Below, piece by piece: positions 13,985-28,987 of a stretch of DNA of 64,000 nt. How positions within the stretch are numbered: position 1 is the stretch's first letter; every line of letters begins with the position of its first letter. Origin of the DNA: an uncultured delta proteobacterium (lineage in GTDB: Bacteria > Desulfobacterota > Binatia > Binatales > Binataceae). The translations under genes and the position numbers were made by a program. Under the pieces are notes generated by a model. That model was not told where the DNA came from and did not search any database. It was given only the letters and a program-made list of their open reading frames with translations. Location of the stretch: the NCBI GenBank assembly GCA_963842085.1, contig CAWJET010000002.1, positions 1,600,001 to 1,664,000 on the forward strand, written 5' to 3'.

Positions 13985-14470
13985 ATGCAGGACGAGAGAT
14001 CTTTCAGGTCGCCGGAGCCGATCCCACAGCGGATCGCAAGGCTGAAGTCGTATTCGGTCGCCGAGCTGAAACAGCAATGGCAGGCGCTCTACCACTCCGA
14101 TCCACCACATCGCATCAGTCGCGAGCTTTTGACCCGTGCCGTGGCGTATCGCATCCAGGAGCAAGTCCACGGAGGGCTCAAACCCTCCACCCGCAGAATG
14201 CTAATTCGTCTAGCCAACGACGCGCGATCAGGACGGCCGCTCAGACCTGAGCCGGCCGCCGGAGCGCCGGCGGGGACTGTATTACTGCGCGAGTGGCATG
14301 GCGTAACTCATGAGGTGAGAGTGCTCGATTGGGGAGTGCTGTTCAAGCGAAAGCGCTATCGCTCGCTCACCGAGGTCGCCCAGCTGATCACCGGCGCGCA
14401 CTGGAATGGGCCACAGTTCTTCGGTTTGCGAGGCAGGCGAAAGCAGGAGACAAGTCATGAATCGAAGTGA
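13985..14470 (+). CDS. DUF2924 protein
   Basis: ELKQQW..LY, AYRIQE...GGL, GTVLLREWHG..HEV, YRSLT.VA..ITGAHWNGP.FFGL. Confidence 0.9.
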   Translation: MQDERSFRSPEPIPQRIARLKSYSVAELKQQWQALYHSDPPHRISRELLTRAVAYRIQEQVHGGLKPSTRRMLIRLANDARSGRPLRPEPAAGAPAGTVLLREWHGVTHEVRVLDWGVLFKRKRYRSLTEVAQLITGAHWNGPQFFGLRGRRKQETSHESK

Positions 14471-16228
14471 CGGCGCTCCGAACCGGTGTGCGATCTATAC
14501 GCGCAAGTCCTCCGAGGAGGGGCTCGAGCAGAACTTCAACTCGCTGCACGCGCAGCGCCAGGCCTGTGAAGCATTCGTCAAGAGCCAAGTCGGCGAGGGC
14601 TGGCGCCTGATCAAGACAGCGTATGACGACGGCGGATTTTCCGGCGCGACCATGGATCGACCGGCCCTGAAAGCCCCGGTCGCCCACGTCAAGGAAAAGC
14701 GCATCGACGTGGTCGTGGTCTACAAAGTCGACCGTCTCACCCGGTCGCTGGCCGACTTCGCCAAGATCGTGGAAATCTTTGATGCCCACGGAGTTTCGTT
14801 TGTCACGGTCACGCAGCAGTTCAACACCACCACGTCGATGGGCCGATTAACCCTGAACGTGCTGCTCTCATTTGCACAGTTCGAACGCGAGGTGACCGGC
14901 GAGCGCATCCGCGACAAGATCGCGGCGTCCAAGCAGAAAGGGATGTGGATGGGAGGCACGCCGCCGCTGGGCTACGACCTGCGCGATCGTCGTCTAGTGG
15001 TAAACGAAGCCGAAGCTAAGACGGTGCAATTGATCTTTAAGCTCTATCTCGAATTCAAGACCTTGCGTAGGGTCAAAAAAGAACTGGACCGCAGGTCGAT
15101 TCTCTCCAAGCAACGGGTGTCGAGAGGTAGTGTACGGCACGGCGGTTTCCCTTTCGGACGCTGCGCGCTCTATCACCTGCTCGCCAATCCGGTCTACGTG
15201 GGCGAGATCCGGCACAAGAATGTCACCTACCCGGGTCAGCACGAAGCGATAATCGAAAGAGTGACTTGGCAGCAGGTTCAGGAGATGCTGAGCCAGAAAG
15301 CCGCTCACCCTCGGGGACGAACGGTCAGAAGAAGCCCTGGCCTCCTCATGGGCAAACTCTTCGATCAGAGCGGCGAGCCGCTGTATTCCTGCTGGGCGAA
15401 AAAAGGACAGCGGCGCTACAGGTACTTCGTCTCGAAGAGGCTGGTCAGGGGAACCGCGAAGCCGGATGAACGTGGGTGGCGCCTGCCTGCCGAACGAACT
15501 GAACTGGCGGTAATGGCCGGCACAAGACCAATGCTCTCGGATCGCGGGGCGCTGGCCTCAACCCTCAGAGCTTTTGGCTTCGCTGCTGCAGAACTCAAGC
15601 AGGCGGTCGGGGCAATCGATTCGAAGGTCAAATCTCATCAGCGGGTCGAGACGGCAGAGGATACGGGGACGCTCATAGAGCGAGTCGAGCTAAGGCGGGA
15701 CGGAATGCAGATCACACTCAATCTACGAGCGCTTCTGCCACCCGATCGGTTCCCCGCCGGCGGAGCCAACCTCCGAATGACCCGTCTTGTTCCGCTGCAG
15801 ATGAGGCGTCGTGGCGTGGAAACGCGCTGGTGCTCCCAAGCGAAGCGGTCGTAGCTCCGCGGACAGATCCTGCCCTGCTTCGAGCATTGGCCCGCGGGTA
15901 CCAGTGGTTCGGCGAACTCGCGGCAGGAACTGCCACTTTAACCAGTCAGATCGCCATTCGAGAAGGTGTGAGCGAAAGCTATGTGCGTCATATGGTGCCG
16001 CTAGCCCTGCTCGCTCCAGCAGTCGTTGAATCTATCTGCGCCGGGCGGCAAGGCGTCTGCCTCTCGGCCGAGCGCCTCAAGGTTCTGGCCGGCGTTCCTA
16101 TCGAATGGGATGCACAGCAGCGACTGCTGGCGGATTTAGAAACGTCCCCCCTTTTCCTTCTCCCTTCTGAGACCTCCAGGGCCCCCATCGATTCTGGCGA
16201 AAGATCAAGCGTCCAAGGCGCCAACTAG
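14457..16228 (+). pseudogene. Large serine recombinase, frameshifted near 15830
   Basis: CAIYTRKSS, DDGGFSGATMDRP, YKVDRLTRS, FAQFERE; the C-terminal DPALLRALARG continues in another frame. Confidence 0.88.
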
Positions 16229-16794: not shown

Positions 16795-19080
16795 TCAGAG
16801 ACCGACCTTCCTCAGCCTTAGCGCGTTGGCGATCACCGACACGGAGCTCAGACTCATCGCGGCGCTCGCGATAATTGGACTCAGCAGCACACCAAATGCC
16901 GGATAAAGAACGCCGGCTGCGATTGGTATACCAAGGACGTTGTAGATAAACGCAAAGAAAAGGTTCTGCCGGATGTTTCGCATCGTCGCGCGGCTGAGGC
17001 GCCGCGCCTTCACGATACCGCGCAGATCCCCCTTGACCAGGGTGACGCCCGCGCTCTCCATTGCCACGTCGGTGCCGGTGCCCATCGCAATCCCGACCTG
17101 TGCCTGCGCCAGCGCGGGTGCGTCGTTGATCCCGTCACCGGCCATCGCGACGATACGTCCTTCCGCTTGCAATCGCTTGACTACCGTGGCCTTCTGATCG
17201 GGCAACACCTCTGCCTCGACCCGATCGATGCCGAGTTTCTTCGCGACCGCCGCCGCTGTGATCTGGTTGTCGCCGGTCAGAAGAACGATCGTCACACCGT
17301 CATCCCGCAGCATCCTGAGTGCTTCCGGAGTGGACGGCTTGATCGGGTCGGCAACGCCGATGAGTCCGGCGCGGCAGCCATCGACAGCGACGAACATCAC
17401 GGTCTGCCCATCTTTTCGCTGAGCGTCCGCATCGGCGGAAACACCGATAGTGACGCCCAACTCGCGCATCATGTGCTGATTCCCGAGCGCAACTGGGCGG
17501 CCTTCGATGCGCCCGGTCACTCCTTGTCACGTCACGGATTTGAAGTCCTCGGCGGTCGCAAGCGTCAGCTTGCGCTCTTCGGCGCCGGCGACAATCGCTG
17601 CTGACAGCGGATGCTCGCTGCCCCGCTCAAGGCCGGCGGCGAGCCGCAACACCTCGGCGTCCGTGAAGCCGTTGAGCGCGGTGACCGAGACTAGCCGCGG
17701 CTTTCCCTCGGTCAGAGTCCCGGTCTTGTCGACGACGAGCGTGTCCACCTTTTCGAGAATCTCGAGCGCCTCAGCGTTCTTGATCAGTACGCCCGCAGTT
17801 GCGCCGCGGCCGGTGCCGACCATGATCGACATTGGAGTTGCAAGGCCTAGCGCGCATGGGCACGCGATGATCAGGACCGCGACCGCGTTCACGATTGCGT
17901 AAGCCATCCGCGGCTGCGGACCGACAATCGCCCAGACGATGAAAGTAATTACGGCCGCCAAAATGACGGCCGGGACGAAATACGATGCAACGATATCGAC
18001 GAGCCGCTGAATCGGAGCGCGGCTGCGTTGAGCATCGCTCACCATGCGGACGATCTGTGCGAGCAGAGTATCGCTGCCGACCCGCTCGGCACGCATGATG
18101 AATCCACCAGTTTCGTTGATGGTCGCTCCGATCAGCCTGTCGCCCGGTTTCTTCTCGACGGGTATTGGCTCGCCGGTAACCATCGACTCGTCAACCGAGC
18201 TGGTCCCCTCCAGAACTCCGCCGTCGATGGGGACTTTCTCGCCGGGACGAACGCGCAGCCGATCTCCGGGGACGACGCGATCGAGTGGGATGTCCTCTTC
18301 GCGTCCGTCAGGCCTGATCACGCGCGCGGTCTTCGGCGCCAATCCCAGCAACGCTCTGATCGCGCTGCTGGTGTTGCTTCGAGCACGAAGCTCGAGGACC
18401 TGTCCGAGCAGTACCAGCGCAGTGATTGCGGCAGCGGCCTCGAAGTAGACCGGAACGGTGCCATCAGCGGCGCGGAACGAATCGGGAAACAAACTCGGGA
18501 AGATAGCTGCGATCAGGCTGTAACCGTAGGCGACGCCAACGCCCATCCCGATCAACGTGAACATGTTGAGACTGCGGTTGACGATCGATTGCCAGCCGCG
18601 AACGAACAGCGGCCAGCCCGCCCACAGCACGGCGGGAGTTGCGAGCGCCAATTCGATCCAGGTCCGCAGCGACGCGGGCATCACGCGCTGAAGAGGACGG
18701 CCCGAAATCATGTCCGACATTTCGATCGCGATCAGCGGGATCGTGAGCGCGACGCTCATCCAGAAGCGCCGCGTCATGTCCGCCAGTTCCGGGGAAACCT
18801 CCTCACCGGCGCTGACAACGCGCGGCTCCAGCGTCATTCCGCATATTGGACAATTGCCCGGCTCGGAACGAACGATCTGCGGATGCTTCGGGCAGACGTA
18901 TTTGGTTTTTGAGACCGCCGGCATCGGCGCGACCGGTTCCAGCGCCATGCTGCACTTGGGACACGAACCCGGATGGTCCTGCCGAATCTCGGGATGCATC
19001 GGACAGGTGTAGTCGCGAGTCTCGCCGGCGCTCGCCACAGAATGCGCGGCCGAATTTTCGACTCCGTGCAGGTCGTTCAT
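16795..19080 (-). pseudogene. copA: Cu+-translocating P1B ATPase interrupted by an in-frame TGA (17527-17529)
   Basis: YTCPMHP metal-binding repeats, [37 protein letters not shown]; both ORFs are in one frame. Confidence 0.9.
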
Positions 19081-19350: not shown

Positions 19351-20154
19351 CTAAACGCGCCGCGCGATAAACCGCGCCTGTGCGATTTTGCCCGCGCCCG
19401 CCATCTCGCCGATGAAACGGAACCCGTCGATGAGCGCCTCCAGCAGGTCGGTGCGGAACCCTACGGTCCGCAGGGCATCGTACCCAAACTGCATCTCGAC
19501 CATGTCGAGATATAGATCCACATGGCGTGCAAACCGTCCGGTGTCTTCCGCAACGCGCACCTCGCAGCCGTTTCCTGACAGCAGTTTGGCGTAGCCCGCA
19601 ATGTCCTCGACGTTGGCGAACATCATCGTGCCGAGAAAGCGCTGGGCCTCCGAACCAGTCAGTCCCACAGGCCCTTCGACCCAATCGGTGAAAGCAATCA
19701 CGCCCCCGGGCCGAACAATGCGCACTGCCTCCGCAATCAACCTCGGCTTGTCGGGGACGTAGCACCATGCGTCCTCGCTCCAGACGAAATCCGCGCTGGC
19801 CGACGGCAGGCCGCTCTGACAGGCATCGGCTAGAACAAACCGGATTTTATCGTCCATGCCCTCTTCATGGGTCAGCCGCCGACCGCGCTCGACGATTGCC
19901 TCGGTTATGTCCACGCCGACCATCGAGGCGACATGGCGAACCCTCACCAGAAAGCGCATGTCCGCGCCGTTGCAGCAACACAGATCGACCCCGCCCATCC
20001 CGGCCCTGATTCCGGCGCGTTCCGCCAGATCGATCGACGCCTTCATTCCTCCTATGTGAATTTGCTGCCCAAATATAAGTTGAAAGAGGTCGCCCGGCGC
20101 ACTGCTATAGACGGAGACTACATCCGTCACCCCGACGCCGGTTATAGACTTCAC
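19351..20154 (-). CDS. Class I SAM methyltransferase, sarcosine/dimethylglycine N-methyltransferase-like
   Basis: FGQQIHIGG, VDLCCCNG (motif I), DFVWSEDA, RIVRPGG.IAFTD; GTG overlaps the upstream stop; AGGAG RBS. Confidence 0.8.
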   Translation of the reverse strand: MKSITGVGVTDVVSVYSSAPGDLFQLIFGQQIHIGGMKASIDLAERAGIRAGMGGVDLCCCNGADMRFLVRVRHVASMVGVDITEAIVERGRRLTHEEGMDDKIRFVLADACQSGLPSASADFVWSEDAWCYVPDKPRLIAEAVRIVRPGGVIAFTDWVEGPVGLTGSEAQRFLGTMMFANVEDIAGYAKLLSGNGCEVRVAEDTGRFARHVDLYLDMVEMQFGYDALRTVGFRTDLLEALIDGFRFIGEMAGAGKIAQARFIARRV

Positions 20155-21176
20155 GATTGTTTCCTCCTTTCACCTTGAATCGCGCCGCTGGCCGCGCGGA
20201 TACCCTCGCGCATCTGCGGATCGCCATCTTTGAAAGTGAAATTCGTCAGCCACAGACGCAGTAGGTGCCGTTTTCTCTCCGGTTCCTTCCAGTCCTCATA
20301 TTCCGTGCGCGCGTGCAGGATCACTGCGTTCTTGAGGAACTGCATGTCGCCGGGCTCGAAGTCCATTTCTTGGTAAAAGGCCGGATCGTTTGCGATCGTG
20401 TCGATCAGATCCAGTAATTCAGTCTGAGCGGCAGTCAGGCGCGGCACTTCCGGGAACCGCTGTGCGTTGCGGATATACCAACCGATATAGAACGTGCCGA
20501 GACGCCCGTTCTCGTACCTGCAAATCGGAAAATTGAAATACCGCGGCTCTCCCGGTCCCGCTTCAGCCTCCCGATCCCAGAAGAAGTTTTCGAAAAGCAA
20601 GGGCGCCAGGTCGGGCCGCCGCCGCATCAGTTCGTTGAATATCGAAACCGAGCTGGCGATTCGGCTTAGTCCTCCCGATTTCGCGCGGTTGAGGCACATC
20701 AGGCCGATGATGTCGGCGCCGTCGGTGTGAAAGTCGAGTTTCATCCGCGTGCGATATAGCCGGATTCCGGGTTGCGTTGGGTCGGCTCCATCATCGCGCA
20801 CATGGCCCAGCGCATCGCCCTTGCGATTTTGGGGAACCGGGCACCCCATTTGCAGACCGATGAGCCAGTACGCGAATGATGCTTCCGCTTCAGTGTGATC
20901 CGCCGCCGGAAATCCTCTGACCAGGAAAAAGCCCCGGCCATCGTCCAGCTCTCGCATCCACGCCGCGATGGCAGGACCGAGCACCGGAAGCGGGTAGTCC
21001 GACGCGGAGATTTCCCTCAGCGCCTTGCCCATCCGCCGATACGCTTGTATAGCGGAATCGAGCTCCGCATTCTCCGCGTCGGACAGGACATGGATCCAGT
21101 CGCTTCGCTTGCTCTGCTGGGGGCCGAGCCATGCGGCCGGGCTACTTACGAATTTATCTGGAATTCTATTGGCCAT
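20151..21176 (-). CDS. TauD/TfdA-family Fe(II)/2-oxoglutarate dioxygenase
   Basis: FHTD...HART facial triad, RHLLRLWL, GRGFFLVRG. Confidence 0.9.
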   Translation of the reverse strand: MANRIPDKFVSSPAAWLGPQQSKRSDWIHVLSDAENAELDSAIQAYRRMGKALREISASDYPLPVLGPAIAAWMRELDDGRGFFLVRGFPAADHTEAEASFAYWLIGLQMGCPVPQNRKGDALGHVRDDGADPTQPGIRLYRTRMKLDFHTDGADIIGLMCLNRAKSGGLSRIASSVSIFNELMRRRPDLAPLLFENFFWDREAEAGPGEPRYFNFPICRYENGRLGTFYIGWYIRNAQRFPEVPRLTAAQTELLDLIDTIANDPAFYQEMDFEPGDMQFLKNAVILHARTEYEDWKEPERKRHLLRLWLTNFTFKDGDPQMREGIRAASGAIQGERRKQS

Positions 21177-21191
21177 CGAATCTGTCTCGCG

Positions 21192-22004
21192 TCAGCTTCG
21201 CGCCGGCTTGCGGGCCCGGACGAAGGCGCTTATGAATTTGCCGTTCGCCATTTGCGCGAATTTCTCGAGGTCTGGATTTTCCGCAAGAAATCCTTGCGCG
21301 TCGGCCGCCGTATAGATCCGCGTCGCTTCCACTTCGATTTGTTCAAATCCCGCCGCAGCGAGCTTCGATTGGTATTCCGACTCGTTCAGCGCCCCGGCGA
21401 TGCATCCGGCCCACAGCTCGACGCGGCGACGAATCTCGCCCGGCATCTCACCGCGGACCACGATGTCCGAAACGGCGAATCGTCCCCCTGGCTTCAGCAC
21501 GCGGAACGCCTCGTGCAGCACCCGATCCTTGTCGGCCGACAGATTGATCACGCAGTTTGAGATGATTACATCCACCGAATTGTCGGGCAGCGGGATATGC
21601 TCGATCTCGCCTTTGAGGATTTCGACATTCTGGACACCCGCTTTGCGTTGGTTGTCGCGCGCAAGGGCGAGCATCTCGTCAGTCATGTCGAGCCCGTACG
21701 CCTTGCCCGCCGGCCCAACTCTTCGCGCTGAGAGCAGCACGTCGATCCCGCCACCTGAGCCCAGGTCGAGCACGATTTCGCCCGGCTTCAGCTCGGCGAG
21801 CGCTGTTGGATTCCCGCATCCCAGCGACGCCGCAAGCGCCTGGGCGGGAATCAATGCGGTCTCACTCTCGCGGTAGAGATTCGAGGTGATCGGGTTTCCC
21901 GCGGGCGCTGCCGAGCCGCAGCACGAGGCGCCCTGTTCGGTGACTCGCCGCGCCGCTTGCGCGTACTCTTCCCTGACCTTCTCCCTTATCGATTCATTAC
22001 TCAT
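21192..22004 (-). CDS. arsM: Arsenite S-adenosylmethionine methyltransferase
   Basis: SCCG, SLGCGNP, LDLGSGGG, SNCVINL, WAGCIAGA; GGAGG RBS before 22004. Confidence 0.93.
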   Translation of the reverse strand: MSNESIREKVREEYAQAARRVTEQGASCCGSAAPAGNPITSNLYRESETALIPAQALAASLGCGNPTALAELKPGEIVLDLGSGGGIDVLLSARRVGPAGKAYGLDMTDEMLALARDNQRKAGVQNVEILKGEIEHIPLPDNSVDVIISNCVINLSADKDRVLHEAFRVLKPGGRFAVSDIVVRGEMPGEIRRRVELWAGCIAGALNESEYQSKLAAAGFEQIEVEATRIYTAADAQGFLAENPDLEKFAQMANGKFISAFVRARKPARS

Positions 22005-22368
22005 CGTGACCTCCATGCCTGCCCGTTATTTTGCGGGAGAGGCGATTAGCTGATAGCGAACGATCTGGCGATGCGCCCGGCGTCTTGTGAAGACCGGCGC
22101 AACAGTCCTCGGTCATGAACTGGATCAACTTGGCGGCTTGCGGCCAATTGACTGCGTAATAGATGAATCGTCCCGCGCGCTGCGCCGTCAGCAGCCCGCA
22201 TCTGGTCAATGCGTCCAGGTGATGAGACAGCGTCGAGCCCGGCATCTTGACCCGGCGCTTGATCTCCTCCACGCAGGTTCCTTGCGGCCCGGCGCGCACC
22301 AGCAGACGGAAGATCTCGAGCCGGCCAGATTGCCCCAGAGCGCTGAATTGTTCGACGTATCGATTCAC
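21997..22368 (-). CDS. arsR: ArsR/SmtB repressor with C-terminal vicinal Cys pair
   Basis: ALGQSGRLEIFRLLV, STLSHHL..L..CGL, TEDCC (AfArsR-type site). Confidence 0.9.
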   Translation of the reverse strand: MNRYVEQFSALGQSGRLEIFRLLVRAGPQGTCVEEIKRRVKMPGSTLSHHLDALTRCGLLTAQRAGRFIYYAVNWPQAAKLIQFMTEDCCAGLHKTPGASPDRSLSANRLSRKITGRHGGHDE

Positions 22369-22374
22369 TACGAC

Positions 22375-22400
22375 TTTTCTAGTATCATCGAAATGATAAA
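22375..22400 (-). promoter_or_regulatory. Putative ArsR operator
   Basis: Imperfect palindrome TTTCGATGATACTAGAAA just upstream of the arsR start. Confidence 0.45.
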
Positions 22401-25013: not shown

Positions 25014-26135
25014 ATGAGCCAACGGCAACTTGCGATGGTAATCAATCTCGACAAATGCATCGGGTGTCAGACTTGTACCGTGGCCTGCAGCACCCACCGC
25101 CTCAATCATCCCGGCACCGAAATGCTCCGCTACATATGGTGCGAAACCAAGCCCGGCGAAGGTTGGCCCAAGGGATGGATGGAGCTGGGGCGCAAGGTTC
25201 CGGATCGCGTGCGAGACTACGGTGGAACCTGGACCTTCAACTGGGAGGAGGTCTATACCTCGCCGGTCGGGACCAAGTACCTGCACCCAATCGTCAAAGA
25301 AACCGGCGAACCGGCGAAGTATGGGCCGATATGGGAAGAAGATCAGGGCGCCGGTGAGTGGCCCAATGGATACTTCTTCTATATGCCCCGGCTCTGCAAT
25401 CACTGCACGGATGCTCCTTGCATAGAAGTCTGTCAAGGCCACTTCGCACGAGGCGGCGGGCTGCCGACCGCCCAAGCGAACGGGCACAAGAACTCGATGC
25501 GCAAGCGCGAATCGGACGGGATCGTCATGATCGATCCGAGTTCGTGCGACGAGTGCGGGCTGTGTGCGGCTGCATGTCCCTACAAAATCCCGATGGAGAA
25601 CCTGCTGGCGGGCACCTACGAGATGTGCGACTTCTGCGCGGGCCGGGTGGAAAACCAGTACGCTCCGGTATGTGCGAAGAGCTGCCCCGCGCGCGCGATG
25701 TACTTCGGTTACCTGGACGACAAGGAGAGCTACGTCTCCAAGCTCGTCAACGAATACAAAGTTGCCTTGCCGCTGCGTCCGGACTTCGACACGGGTCCGA
25801 ATGTCTACTACATACCTCCCTTCATCCGGCCAACAACTTTCGCAGCCGACAATAAGCCGACCGGTCAGGCCGATATTCCGACCGATCTGCTTCGTAAGTA
25901 CTTCGGACCGGGCGTTGATCAGGCGATGGCAACGCTCAAGGAGCATCGCGCACGCGCCGAGCGCGGAGAACATTCCGAATTGATGGATCTGCTCATCATT
26001 TACAAATGGTCGGACGCCTTCGCCCCGTTCAACGTCTTGGCTCCCGTTGAGCCGATCGAACAGGGTGTCGAGGCTAGTAGGGGAAGCCAGCCGATCGAGC
26101 AGGGTGTCGAGGCTAGTAAGGGGCACCGGTCATGA
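25014..26135 (+). CDS. Type II DMSO-reductase-family Fe-S beta subunit (NarH/EbdB-like)
   Basis: QLAMVINLDKCIGCQTCTVAC, GP.WEEDQG, FYMPRLCNHC, CDECGLCAAACPY, PL.PDF.TGPNVYYIPP. Confidence 0.92.
   Translation: MSQRQLAMVINLDKCIGCQTCTVACSTHRLNHPGTEMLRYIWCETKPGEGWPKGWMELGRKVPDRVRDYGGTWTFNWEEVYTSPVGTKYLHPIVKETGEPAKYGPIWEEDQGAGEWPNGYFFYMPRLCNHCTDAPCIEVCQGHFARGGGLPTAQANGHKNSMRKRESDGIVMIDPSSCDECGLCAAACPYKIPMENLLAGTYEMCDFCAGRVENQYAPVCAKSCPARAMYFGYLDDKESYVSKLVNEYKVALPLRPDFDTGPNVYYIPPFIRPTTFAADNKPTGQADIPTDLLRKYFGPGVDQAMATLKEHRARAERGEHSELMDLLIIYKWSDAFAPFNVLAPVEPIEQGVEASRGSQPIEQGVEASKGHRS
26050..26127 (+). repeat. 39-bp tandem duplication (PIEQGVEAS x2) at the beta-subunit C-terminus
   Basis: AGCCGATCGA.CAGGGTGTCGAGGCTAGTA at 26050 and 26089. 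Confidence 0.85.
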
Positions 26136-28987
26136 GCAAGCAGAAGGGTGAAGAAAATCCTGTGGCTCGGCAAGCAACCGCCGAAGCCCCCGAGAACTAC
26201 TGGCAGTGGGATAGGTGCCGATGGGGAACGCATCGCGTCAATTGCTATCCCGGCAGTTGTCCCTTCCGTGTCTATGCCAAGGACGGCCACGTGATTCGCG
26301 AGGAAATCTCGTGCACCTATCCCGAGTTCACCGACCCCGACTACAAGGTGCCTGACTACAATCCGCGTGGATGCCAGAAAGGCTACCAGCACTCGAAGGC
26401 GATGTATGGCCCCGATCGGCTGCTATACCCGATGAAGCGCGTAGGCGAGCGGGGCAGCGGTAAGTGGGAGCGAATCAGCTGGGATCAGGCCTGCGATGAA
26501 ATCGCCGGCAAGTTTGTCGATATCATCATAAAATATGGGCCGCATGCGATCTCCGACGACCATGGAACCAATGGCGCTGGCGTGTTGCGCGGCGGGGGCG
26601 AAGGCGCCTCGACCGGATTCGTGTCGCGCTTGGGCGGGGTCAGCTACGACCTCAATTTTCTCATCGGCGATTTCAACCCCGGTCAGTACCTGACCTTCGG
26701 CCAGTTTCAGCATGCTCCGGGAATCGAGACCTGGTTCCTGGCCGACACGATCATAGCTCTTTCAAATCCGGCTTATGGGAACATTCCCGACATCCACTAT
26801 ATTCTCGAGGCGCGCTACCGCGGCGCCAAGGTAGTTGCGATCGCGCCTGACAAGAATGCCACTGCGCAGTTCGCTGACATGTGGCTGCCAGTCAACTGGT
26901 CTGCCGACCCGGCGTTGTGGCTCGGCGTCTGCAATATCCTGATCGAAAAAGGATGGCTTGATATCGAGTTCATGAAGGAACAGACCGATCTCCCGGTGTT
27001 GGTCCGCATGGACAATCAGCAGTTCCTGCGCGGGTCCGACTTACGCGAGGGCGCGGATATGGAGCAGTTCTATGCAATCGACAGCGCCACCGGCAAGCCC
27101 GAGCAACTGCCCAAAGGCACGCTTGCGATGCCGTTCGACTATGCGCTTGAGGGCAACTGGAAAGTCACCCTGAAGGACAAGAAGCAGGTCGAGGTCACAA
27201 CGGTCTACGAGCTGCTCAAGAAGCGAGTCGCTGAATACACGCCGGAAAAGGTCCATGAGATCTCCGGGGTCCATCCCGATCAGCTCGCCCAATTGGCCGA
27301 ACTGGTCAAGCCACCGCGCAAGGTGTTCGTCTTTGTCAACTGGAACGCCGGCAAGCTTTACCACGGCGATCTTCTCGAGCGCTCTTACTGTTACATGCTC
27401 GCGCTCACTGGAAACGTCGGCAAGGCTGGCACAGGATCACGAGGATGGTCGGCCGGCGCTGAGTACATCGGCGGCGCCGCGGTCGTTGGCGGGATGCCCA
27501 ATGAGGTGCTCGAGACCGGCAACCCGCTGCTTCACGCCATGAATATGTCGCAGAAGATACAGGAGGACTATCGGACGCAGTTCAAAATGGACCCGACGAT
27601 GCCTCAGGCCGAGGCTGCTTTGGGTGCGCTCCGCGAAGGTCTCAGAGCGGGCGGCACACTCTCGCCGCCGGTTTGGCTCTGGTACCACCACGCCGGGTAC
27701 AAGGAGGTGTGGGACAAGTACCTCGACGACCCGAACGCGCCCAGGAAAATCAGCGAGTACGCGGAGGAAGCGCTTGCCAACGGCTGGCAGAAAGGATTCG
27801 TTCCCAACAAGGACGTCAGTCCAAAGGGGATGCTGGTATCCGGATCGAATCCGCTCCGCCGTCACCGCGGCGGCATGAACACCTACTTGCAGACTCTGTG
27901 GCCAAAGCTCGAATGCATCGTGGTACTTGATCCGCGCTGGAGCACCACCGGACTTTACGCCGACTACGTTCTGCCTGCCGCATCGTTCTACGAGTATGCC
28001 GACTCGAAGTACTCGACTCCGGCGACGCGCTTCAGCACTTTCACGGATCAGACCGTGCCTATGCTCGGCGAGTCCAGATCAGACCGCCAGATCACGCTCG
28101 CCCTGCTCAAACGCATCCAGGAGCAGTTCCTGAAGAGAGGCGTGGAAAAGTACAAGTCAGGTGACCGCGAGATCGTGGTCAAGGATCTCTACTGGCGCGC
28201 CACCTTTGGCGGACGCTACGGCGAAACTAACGAAGACGAGGAGGTGTTGGTAAACGACACCTTTAACGCGCTTGGACAGATGGGTTGGTTCGAGAGTCTC
28301 GACGGTGAGGAACTCACGATCGACAACCTGCGCAAGAACGGGAAAGCCTGGCTTACCGGCCGCCCCGCCTGGCACGCTACCGTGGTCCAGAACTCGGACA
28401 TGGTTTCAGGCAGTATTTTCTGGCCCTTCCGCGATCAGCTCGAGCAAAAGGTGCCATACGCAACTACGACGCGGCGCATGGAGCTATACCTCGATCATCC
28501 GTGGTTCATCGAGGCCGATGAACATCTTGTTCGCTACAAGCAGCCGCCCAACATCGGCGGCGCCCAGGGCTTGCGGCTTACCAGCGGACACCTGAGATGG
28601 AGCATTCACTCTAACTGGGTAGTGTCCTACGAGATGCTGAAGCTGCATCGCGGCGAGCCATTTGCTTTCATCAACGAAACCGTCGCGAAGAAAAAAGGCA
28701 TCGCGGATCATGACTACATCCGCGTTTACAATGACTACGGCTCCTTCATAACCAGGGCGAAGCTCAGTTCCTGCACGCGGCCTGACCAGCTAGTGATCTA
28801 CCACGCGTGGGAACCGTATCAGTATCCGAATTGGATGCCGTACGACGGCTTGCTGCCAGGCCCACCCAAGGGCCTGCACTTCGCGGGCGGCTATCGCCAT
28901 TTCGAATACACGCTGTGGAACTGGTCTCCTTCGCAGTCGGATCGGCAGACCAATATCGACTTCGAAAAGGCCGAACTTCAGAACTAG
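26132..28987 (+). CDS. Type II Mo-bisPGD oxidoreductase alpha subunit 1 (EbdA/S25dA/SerA-like)
   Basis: GTHRVNCYPGSC...DYNPRGCQKG FS0 motif; IGD candidate Mo-ligand Asp; GH.RWSIH; 951 aa; no Tat peptide. Confidence 0.92.
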   Translation: MSKQKGEENPVARQATAEAPENYWQWDRCRWGTHRVNCYPGSCPFRVYAKDGHVIREEISCTYPEFTDPDYKVPDYNPRGCQKGYQHSKAMYGPDRLLYPMKRVGERGSGKWERISWDQACDEIAGKFVDIIIKYGPHAISDDHGTNGAGVLRGGGEGASTGFVSRLGGVSYDLNFLIGDFNPGQYLTFGQFQHAPGIETWFLADTIIALSNPAYGNIPDIHYILEARYRGAKVVAIAPDKNATAQFADMWLPVNWSADPALWLGVCNILIEKGWLDIEFMKEQTDLPVLVRMDNQQFLRGSDLREGADMEQFYAIDSATGKPEQLPKGTLAMPFDYALEGNWKVTLKDKKQVEVTTVYELLKKRVAEYTPEKVHEISGVHPDQLAQLAELVKPPRKVFVFVNWNAGKLYHGDLLERSYCYMLALTGNVGKAGTGSRGWSAGAEYIGGAAVVGGMPNEVLETGNPLLHAMNMSQKIQEDYRTQFKMDPTMPQAEAALGALREGLRAGGTLSPPVWLWYHHAGYKEVWDKYLDDPNAPRKISEYAEEALANGWQKGFVPNKDVSPKGMLVSGSNPLRRHRGGMNTYLQTLWPKLECIVVLDPRWSTTGLYADYVLPAASFYEYADSKYSTPATRFSTFTDQTVPMLGESRSDRQITLALLKRIQEQFLKRGVEKYKSGDREIVVKDLYWRATFGGRYGETNEDEEVLVNDTFNALGQMGWFESLDGEELTIDNLRKNGKAWLTGRPAWHATVVQNSDMVSGSIFWPFRDQLEQKVPYATTTRRMELYLDHPWFIEADEHLVRYKQPPNIGGAQGLRLTSGHLRWSIHSNWVVSYEMLKLHRGEPFAFINETVAKKKGIADHDYIRVYNDYGSFITRAKLSSCTRPDQLVIYHAWEPYQYPNWMPYDGLLPGPPKGLHFAGGYRHFEYTLWNWSPSQSDRQTNIDFEKAELQN

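Follow-up and report, generated by a model that had tools for sequence, protein, structure and literature searches.

The 64,000-nucleotide stretch analyzed here (the window) covers C2:1600001-1664000 of G000, a 4.93-Mb genome that consists of two contigs (C1 and C2) and is rated 100% complete. On the minus strand of the window, at 19351-22368, lies an operon of four intact genes: arsR, arsM, a gene encoding a TauD-family Fe(II)/2-oxoglutarate (2OG) oxygenase, and a gene encoding a class I S-adenosylmethionine (SAM) methyltransferase, which we call MT4. The features of the operon, from the 5' to the 3' side of its genes, are as follows.

22377..22392, minus strand: candidate ArsR operator/promoter of 16 nt (TTCGATGATACTAGAA), a conserved element directly 5' of arsR
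21997..22368, minus strand: arsR, ArsR/SmtB repressor, 123 aa from the GTG at 22368; the longest open reading frame (ORF) extends to 22485
21192..22016, minus strand: arsM, arsenite S-adenosylmethionine methyltransferase (NF008823, 365.8 bits)
20159..21202, minus strand: 1,044-bp segment with the TauD gene, missing in same-type arsR-arsM-MT4 operons (blastn)
20151..21176, minus strand: TauD/TfdA-family Fe(II)/2-oxoglutarate oxygenase, FrbJ/TtnM-like, ars-linked group (PF02668, 119.4 bits)
19351..20154, minus strand: MT4, cysteine-rich class I SAM methyltransferase with a fold like that of sarcosine/dimethylglycine methyltransferase (SDMT) and phosphoethanolamine methyltransferase (PEAMT) (Pfam Methyltransf_11/25/31)

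The arsR and arsM genes overlap by 20 nt, 15 nt separate the arsM stop from the TauD ATG, and the TauD and MT4 genes overlap by 4 nt; ORFs and spacing thus match the preliminary description of this DNA, which had reported four intact and tightly coupled genes. The true start of arsR is likely the GTG at 22368, with which the ATG of the relatives aligns. A promoter/terminator scan returned no sigma-70-like promoter and two terminator-like sites, no more than shuffled sequences give. We found no RNA data set containing the operon, and its DNA was present in seven soil-metagenome runs from two studies, at 0.76-0.95 of its words.

Sequence comparison shows that the operon is made of two separately conserved arsenic-linked modules, arsR-arsM-MT4 and the TauD oxygenase. 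With blastn, window positions 22400-21203 (arsR-arsM) and 20158-19358 (MT4) matched four related loci (L097, L101, L103, and L105, where L numbers designate loci fetched for comparison) at 86-90%, and the two blocks, which are 12 nt apart in these loci, are separated in the window by 1,044 bp containing the oxygenase gene. The arrangement arsR-arsM-MT4 is the common operon of the lineage, to which the oxygenase gene is added as a cassette that separates arsM from MT4. We surveyed G000 and 150 further genomes of the order, 151 in all (the counts include the unpublished genome G065), and found MT4 in 33 of them, among which were 23 of 43 genomes of the window's genus; the oxygenase was present in none of the 43 other genomes of this genus. 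The ArsM and MT4 proteins of the window are closest to those of same-genus-type operons (93% and 88% amino acid identity), and the best relatives of its oxygenase are 80-84% identical. The cassette may have been gained by transfer or lost from the relatives.

We then looked into the gene order around the closest relatives of the oxygenase. In the clade of the window oxygenase, arsM lies directly upstream in all nine loci with flanking sequence (the window, L001-L004, and L177-L180), and MT4 lies downstream in 8 of the 11 clade loci. It abuts the oxygenase gene or begins within ∼35 nt of it in the window, L002, L177-L179, L181, and L182, is 610 nt away in L003, and was not found in the flanks of L001, L004, and L180. 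The linkage of arsM, TauD, and a methyltransferase, for which the preliminary description had proposed a neighborhood survey, is thus conserved. An obligate trio was nonetheless rejected, since arsR-arsM-MT4 occurs mostly without TauD and TauD mostly without arsM or MT4. Three further observations concern these loci. L003 and L004 are two arsM-oxygenase copies located ∼1 Mb apart on a single contig (CAVXGH010000002.1), one with MT4 610 nt downstream and the other without MT4 within 6 kb. The arsR-arsM-MT4 operons of eight related loci (L112:5422-5946, L100:4563-5174, and six more) contain a family of 174- to 207-aa ORFs that separate arsR from arsM or the oxygenase gene from MT4; these ORFs have no clear family, gave one weak match to DUF2306 (membrane protein), and are not found in the window. 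Finally, the oxygenase gene at G126:C2:1015330-1016323 matches as two fragments whose frames differ (residues 1-212 and 207-331), likely owing to a frameshift.

To place the oxygenase in a wider context, 8,000 candidates were scored, of which 7,360 were relatives with an E value of ≤0.001. We fetched 81 oxygenase loci on contigs from a set with one genome per species and ran tblastn with representative proteins over their flanks, 6 kb to either side, with bit-score thresholds of our own choice. Ars-type neighbors were found in 38 of the 81 loci, namely, ArsC-like proteins in 24, ArsI-like proteins in 23, ArsR in 17, aquaporin in 12, Acr3 in 12, ArsM in 10, and MT4 in 2. Blind clustering of the neighboring ORFs recovered the same families (in 73/81 loci, those where a crude gene caller found the oxygenase), and a check of representative neighbors against NCBIfam gave 359 and 462 bits for acr3 (cutoff, 283) and 189 bits for ArsI_CadI (cutoff, 116). 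All 23 ArsI-like neighbors contain a vicinal cysteine pair, and 12 of their genes are located no more than ∼200 nt upstream of the oxygenase gene on the same strand; ArsI is the commonest close neighbor of this oxygenase group.

The association follows the phylogeny of the oxygenase. In a maximum-likelihood tree of 82 rows, an ars-linked side was split from the other sequences at a branch with 99% SH-aLRT support. The ars-linked side comprises 54 rows, including the window, and 38 of its 53 loci have ars neighbors, compared to 0 of 28 on the other side, where two loci gave sub-threshold ArsR-like matches (42 and 44 bits). Mapped on the tree, the ars label changes 10 times, against a mean of 27.1 for shuffled labels, and each of 500 shuffles required more changes. 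Members of the ars-linked side come from Actinomycetota, Alpha- and Gammaproteobacteria, Myxococcota, and Binatota, and their varied gene orders argue for repeated recruitment of the oxygenase; in most of the other lineages, TauD is found in ars islands without arsM or MT4. A tblastn search of plasmids with the oxygenase returned 27 records, all below 60% identity (≤47% among the 25 matches listed), and the one plasmid locus examined, from Streptomyces, had no obvious ars island. The oxygenase also occurs in cultured bacteria, among them Archangium lansingense MIWBW (L020) and Polyangium sp. 6x1 (L023).

We then analyzed the sequence and predicted structure of the oxygenase. It belongs to the TauD/TfdA family (PF02668, 119.4 bits for a cutoff of 27), and residues H150, D152, H288, and R303 do not vary among 23 sequences and show at least 90% conservation in a set of 82. 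From what is known of the family, we take H150, D152, and H288 to be the HxD...H iron triad and R303 to be the 2OG-binding arginine. Taurine dioxygenase and the other named equivalogs were rejected, as the sole NCBIfam matches were three weak ones to carnitine and trimethyl-2-aminoethylphosphonate (trimethyl-AEP) hydroxylases, at 17-18 bits for cutoffs of 268-415. The closest solved relatives in a PDB profile search were TtnM (7n7v; E value, 7e-67) and FrbJ (5eqn; E value, 7e-64), followed by gamma-butyrobetaine dioxygenase at an E value of 2e-4. Foldseek, run with a model of mean pLDDT 86, agreed on FrbJ and TtnM (TM score of 0.72-0.75 and 26-29% identity), with far weaker matches thereafter, the next structural relatives being the amino acid hydroxylases AsnO, VioC, and KDO1. 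Both FrbJ, which acts on a phosphonate, and TtnM hydroxylate C-H bonds in small acids.

Trivalent arsenicals are mostly bound by proteins through pairs of cysteines. Among the positions of the oxygenase that are conserved on the ars-linked side of the tree and not on the other, which are W73, L140, G153, A154, and W233, there is no cysteine. The absence of a cysteine pair, the conserved arginines, and the two extra tryptophans together give a weak hint that the substrate is pentavalent and bears methyl groups; a methylated oxyanion or oxide would fit the oxygenase better than a thiol-bound trivalent arsenical.

MT4 belongs to a strongly conserved family: more than 120 clusters related to it at an identity of at least 73% are listed, nearly all with 267 aa. 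We fetched 80 MT4 loci, 28 with an identity of ∼70% or more and 52 with 57-65%. In the close set, arsM adjoins MT4 in 24 of the 28 loci, 23 of which have arsR too; the genes are usually ordered arsR-arsM-MT4, arsM and MT4 being 9-52 nt apart, and the NCBI titles refer to metagenome-assembled genomes of Candidatus Binatus, Binataceae, or "delta proteobacterium." The oxygenase is present in one of the 24 arsM-linked loci (L112, the same place as L003) and absent from the other 23. The relatives with 57-65% identity come from Planctomycetota, Lentisphaerota, Myxococcota, Anaerolineales, and others. In 21 of these 52 distant loci, MT4 is directly upstream of two or three tandem paralogs of a double-cubane-cluster reductase (NF040772, 413 bits for a cutoff of 350), and SelB and SelA are found nearby in six and five loci, respectively. 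The pairing of distant MT4 with the double-cubane reductase is a conserved module of its own (L136-L176, for example, L148:3521-8029).

The preliminary description had noted that the last gene of the operon carries IHIG and VWSEDA motifs, which are indeed seen in MT4, and that these recall sarcosine/dimethylglycine N-methyltransferases. This likeness is borne out by the fold and does not extend to family membership. The top Foldseek match of the MT4 model (mean pLDDT, 88) was SDMT from Galdieria (2o57; E value, 1.6e-19; TM score, ∼0.8), with PEAMTs next, and the PDB profile search gave 78 and 75 bits for plant PEAMTs and 62 bits for the Galdieria SDMT. Against the SDMT model (NF041675), MT4 scored 47.1 bits for a cutoff of 550, about as much as the ArsM of the same operon (46.8 bits), and we therefore rejected its assignment as an SDMT. 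Moreover, HMMER alignments to 5wp4, 5wp5, and 2o57 placed Tyr132 of MT4, which follows the invariant Cys131, at the position of the histidine in the PEAMT/SDMT motif (ILH/FLH). This histidine corresponds to the catalytic His132 of the Plasmodium protein, for which the PDB titles include an H132A mutant. A search of a protein atlas with MT4 returned only clusters annotated as generic methyltransferase or "putative PEAMT." Cys59, Cys60, Cys61, Cys131, and Cys197 are invariant in both the close and the distant sets, and the first three are located in motif I, which reads Cys-Cys-Cys in MT4 and Gly-Cys-Gly in PEAMT. These cysteines suggest a thiol-binding substrate.

ArsM itself is a regular member of its family, with 365.8 bits against NF008823 (cutoff, 263) over profile positions 2-270 of 272. 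Cys33, Cys67, Cys155, and Cys205 do not vary in the 37 ArsM rows taken from the fetched loci and presumably correspond to the ligand cysteines of characterized ArsMs. The arsinothricin (ArsL-ArsM) and arsenosugar (ArsS-ArsM) pathways were considered and rejected, as the pathway-specific ArsM models gave 161.6 bits for a cutoff of 500 and 120.1 bits for a cutoff of 400, respectively. A radical SAM gene is absent from the four-gene operon; ArsL and ArsS were not looked for in the rest of the genome.

The ArsR protein belongs to the ArsR/SmtB family (NF033788, 67.8 bits for a cutoff of 55; Pfam HTH_5 and HTH_20). Its cysteines are at positions 71, 96, 128, and 129 of the 162-aa ORF, with no third cysteine within 12 residues after the 128/129 pair, and all 24 distinct arsM-linked ArsRs of the lineage have such a pair without a third cysteine. 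A CCxGxxxxC motif was found in 11 of 14 scored ArsRs from other loci, most of which are near arsC, acr3, or arsI-type genes (8 further rows were left unscored), and these 11 include the ArsR encoded beside arsC-acr3 in G000. Two ArsR types therefore coexist in this genome, one with a three-cysteine C terminus at the arsC-acr3 locus and one with two cysteines at both of its arsR-arsM loci. In the accessible text of PMC11868830, the site of AfArsR is given as Cys95, Cys96, and Cys102, and SpArsR from Shewanella putrefaciens, which lacks the third cysteine, is described as answering methylarsenite [MAs(III)] and not As(III). An arsenite-sensing ArsR of the AfArsR type (type 2) was rejected, since the third C-terminal cysteine is missing in the window and in the 24 arsM-linked relatives. 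Given the two-cysteine form, methylarsenite is a more likely inducer than arsenite, and by analogy with SpArsR, the operon may be switched on by methylarsenite.

Upstream of arsR, the 16-nt element is invariant across six aligned upstream regions whose flanks are otherwise dissimilar, and it occurs exactly in 20 related loci (each place counted once). The 4.93-Mb genome contains a single exact copy, and a copy with two mismatches precedes its second arsR-arsM pair. From this conservation we infer that the element is an operator or a promoter.

Evaluation of the rest of the genome agreed with the preliminary description that the operon has no arsC, acr3, or arsB: tblastn searches with ArsC-like, Acr3, ArsI-like, and aquaporin queries matched only the operon's own genes on contig C2. 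A classic arsR-arsC-acr3 locus is located elsewhere in G000, at C1:1067122-1069061, and the second arsR-arsM pair, at C1:2584013-2585269, is 82% and 86% identical to that of the window. ArsB, ArsH, and ArsI gave no match reaching the cutoff anywhere in G000.

The region around the operon had also been described as otherwise decaying, which is only partly borne out. On the downstream side, a gene for a heavy-metal P-type ATPase at 16795-19080 on the minus strand (HMBD, E1-E2 ATPase, and hydrolase domains) is broken by a single in-frame TGA at 17527-17529, at a place where the usual ATPase motif normally has a glycine; the gene is either a pseudogene or the product of a sequencing error. On the other side of the operon, the Usp, NifU-like, CMD, and molybdoenzyme pair genes gave ordinary Pfam matches. 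Also downstream of the operon, a large serine recombinase (482 aa; Resolvase and Recombinase domains) is encoded at 14406-15854 on the plus strand, and its end is overlapped by a 132-aa ORF without a Pfam match (region 14406-16228, plus strand). The recombinase and the fact that homology to relatives ends at the operon borders suggest a mobile or rearranged region. The molybdoenzyme pair, located 2.5 kb from the operon at 25014-28987 on the plus strand, consists of a 4Fe-4S subunit gene (373 aa) overlapping the gene for a 951-aa molybdopterin oxidoreductase of the dimethyl sulfoxide reductase type, which might reduce or oxidize an oxyanion of arsenic or selenium.

The known bacterial toolkit for methylated arsenic consists of ArsM, which makes methylarsenicals, ArsI, which splits methylarsenite, ArsH, which oxidizes methylarsenite, and export. 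TauD hydroxylates the carbon next to a heteroatom, the sulfur of taurine, and the product falls apart. We consider it very probable that both extra genes of the operon are arsenic related, and we tentatively propose an ArsR-controlled operon for handling methylated arsenic, in which oxidative dealkylation of pentavalent methylarsenicals would be combined with a second metalloid methylation. ArsR would respond more likely to methylarsenite, and ArsM would methylate trivalent arsenic. The oxygenase would hydroxylate an arsenic-bound carbon of a pentavalent methylarsenical, which could be dimethylarsenate [DMAs(V)], methylarsenate [MAs(V)], or trimethylarsine oxide (TMAsO), and the hydroxymethyl product would be expected to split, releasing formaldehyde and leaving a trivalent arsenical that has lost one methyl group, as in the action of TauD on taurine. 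This chemistry, drawn by analogy, is a possibility that we hold with some doubt. The trivalent product would pass to the partner encoded alongside, which would be ArsM here, returning it to methylation toward volatile trimethylarsine, and ArsI or Acr3 elsewhere. MT4 would be a second methyltransferase for a soft, thiol-binding (metalloid) substrate, perhaps in a late methylation step; that it acts on arsenic is somewhat short of an even prospect.

The proposed reaction of the oxygenase fits all the observed neighborhoods and would supply the unexplained demethylation of DMAs, the mechanism of which is stated to be unclear in the accessible text of a 2023 paper that has ArsI acting on MMAs(III) (PMC10579292). 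In its boldest form, which we regard as rather doubtful, the proposal is that the ars-linked TauD group is the missing aerobic demethylase, converting DMAs(V) into methylarsenite and formaldehyde and MAs(V) into arsenite, and that MT4 represents a new cysteine-based family of metalloid methyltransferases with an SDMT-like fold. If true, this would open a reductase-free path from As(V)-methyl species to trivalent forms for ArsI, Acr3, or ArsM.

Several points weigh against this proposal. The substrate assignments are built on gene association and analogy, and a demethylase beside ArsM looks futile unless a rescue cycle holds; G000 has no ArsI or ArsH above cutoff to handle the methylarsenite so made. 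The oxygenase (E value of ≤1e-60) is rare in the order, as it was found in only 5 of the 151 genomes, G000 and four of the seven genomes of one other genus. On the ars-linked side of the tree, 15 of the 53 loci have no ars gene in their flanks, 7 of these 15 being under 9 kb long; the tree was built by a rapid search and rooted at the midpoint, and related loci do not count as independent. Among the neighbors, the ArsC-like and aquaporin representatives fall below the NCBIfam cutoffs, and NF041414 cannot tell ArsI from CadI. In ArsR, Cys71 and Cys96 could supply a third ligand. For MT4, none of the 52 distant loci has ars neighbors although all five cysteines are kept, and the substrate of the family therefore need not be arsenic.

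Other explanations were weighed against oxidative dealkylation coupled to a second methylation. In one of them, a new organoarsenical, for instance, a quaternary arsonium, would be made by the three enzymes, with MT4 converting trimethylarsine into tetramethylarsonium, or by an arsenobetaine route in which the oxygenase functionalizes a methyl group. The nearest folds of MT4 (SDMT 2o57 and the PEAMTs) do make onium compounds, the order arsM-TauD-MT4 recurs in the window, L002, L003, and L177-L179, and W73 and W233 of the oxygenase could form part of an aromatic cage. However, MT4 fails the SDMT model by a wide distance (47 versus 550 bits) and has a tyrosine in place of the motif histidine, while the two modules are mostly apart and the oxygenase lies beside arsI, arsC, and acr3, a pattern that fits detoxification and not biosynthesis. 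As to arsenobetaine, which the preliminary description had put forward, no gene of the operon would supply the carboxymethyl group and nothing points specifically to this product; a quaternary arsonium is possible as a minor alternative, and we judge the explanation as a whole unlikely.

A comparably low likelihood attaches to the view that the oxygenase, MT4, or both act on a non-arsenical compound and are merely coregulated, for instance, in cleaving sulfonates for sulfur under arsenic stress or in methylating selenium or another soft element. It would account for the sister side of the TauD tree, which lacks ars context, and for the distant kin of MT4, which lie beside double-cubane reductases, some of them beside SelA or SelB, and not beside ars genes. 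It sits poorly with the location of the oxygenase gene inside ars operons, on the same strand and a short distance from its neighbors, a setting seen in several phyla with differing gene order, and with the position of MT4 9-52 nt after arsM in most close loci.

The oxygenase might instead stand in for ArsH by oxidizing trivalent methylarsenicals, MAs(III) or DMAs(III), to less toxic pentavalent forms. No ArsH or ArsI is above cutoff in G000, no ArsH-like family is among the 20 neighbor clusters listed, and a methylarsenite inducer, as suggested by the two-cysteine ArsR, would suit this role, which fits both the arsM and the arsI neighborhoods. To our knowledge, though, no TauD-family enzyme oxidizes a heteroatom in such a way; the oxygenase has no conserved cysteine pair to hold a trivalent arsenical, and its nearest relatives are C-H hydroxylases. 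We consider such a function improbable, to about the same degree as the two preceding alternatives.

Less probable again is hydroxylation of a larger foreign arsenical (arsinothricin, an arsenosugar breakdown product, or arsenocholine) for resistance or salvage. According to the entry titles, FrbJ acts on a phosphonate antibiotic; the amino acid hydroxylases AsnO, VioC, and KDO1 come next by structure, and the oxygenase gene is found in the ars islands of soil bacteria. Against it, the frequent neighbors include no arsN, arsL, or arsinothricin-type transporter, the identity to FrbJ and TtnM is only 26-29%, and nothing singles out one such substrate. Finally, a chance adjacency in a mobile, partly decayed region, which the recombinase, the broken ATPase gene, the lack of the oxygenase in 43 other genomes of the genus, and the end of homology at the operon borders might suggest, is very improbable, because the same order recurs in independent assemblies, the four frames are intact and overlap or nearly abut, and the ars association of the oxygenase is family-wide.

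We looked for precedents in a full-text literature search, which covered few subscription journals and no supplementary gene tables. Within this coverage, no pairing of ArsM with an Fe/2OG oxygenase is described, in agreement with the novelty claimed for it in the preliminary description, and no paper deals with a 2OG/TauD-family enzyme in ars operons or with an MT4-type methyltransferase. Three candidate reports were set aside on the basis of their accessible text: the new determinant in PMC9144182 is folE, tauD and ars genes appear in unrelated tables in PMC11647585, and PMC10256816 concerns arsC/arsH induction only.

The window thus contains an ars operon with two uncharacterized and widely conserved accessory enzymes, which may both carry out steps still missing from the known arsenic cycle. 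Methylated arsenic species govern the toxicity of arsenic, its mobility, and its entry into crops such as rice. Both enzymes are widespread and intact, the oxygenase in ars islands of several phyla and MT4 tied to arsM in one soil lineage, and if either acts on arsenic, it would extend the arsenic cycle by one step and provide soil surveys with a marker gene.

Compared to known arsRM operons, such as ArarsRMC of Arsenicibacter rosenii as presented in the accessible text of PMC11868830, the operon shares an ArsR repressor gene followed by arsM in one transcription unit; it differs in having two additional enzymes after arsM, in lacking arsC, and in the cysteine pair of its ArsR, which has no third cysteine, unlike ArArsR and AfArsR. 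With SpArsR, as described in the same text, the ArsR of the window has in common an AfArsR-like C-terminal Cys-Cys without the third cysteine, a likeness by description only, and it has Cys71 and Cys96 in addition. SDMT and PEAMT are the best fold and profile matches of MT4, which has the IHxG and W/Y-S-x-D region in common with them but is ∼20% identical to them and is set apart by Tyr132 in place of the motif histidine, by the Cys-Cys-Cys of motif I, and by its five invariant cysteines.

For the oxygenase, FrbJ (5eqn) and the tautomycetin hydroxylase TtnM (7n7v) have the same Fe(II)/2OG core and are the closest in profile and fold; they are located in antibiotic biosynthesis clusters, whereas the group of the window's oxygenase, at only 26-29% identity, is found in ars islands. 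With TauD, it has in common the PF02668 domain and the proposed logic of the reaction, in which arsenic would replace sulfur; it matches no NCBIfam equivalog, and no chain named taurine dioxygenase was among the six PDB profile matches or the listed Foldseek rows. The C-As lyase ArsI is likewise an oxygen-dependent iron enzyme of ars islands, and it strips the methyl group from methylarsenite. ArsI, however, has a vicinal oxygen chelate (VOC)/glyoxalase fold and holds its trivalent substrate with a cysteine pair, whereas the oxygenase of the window is a 2OG enzyme without such a pair.

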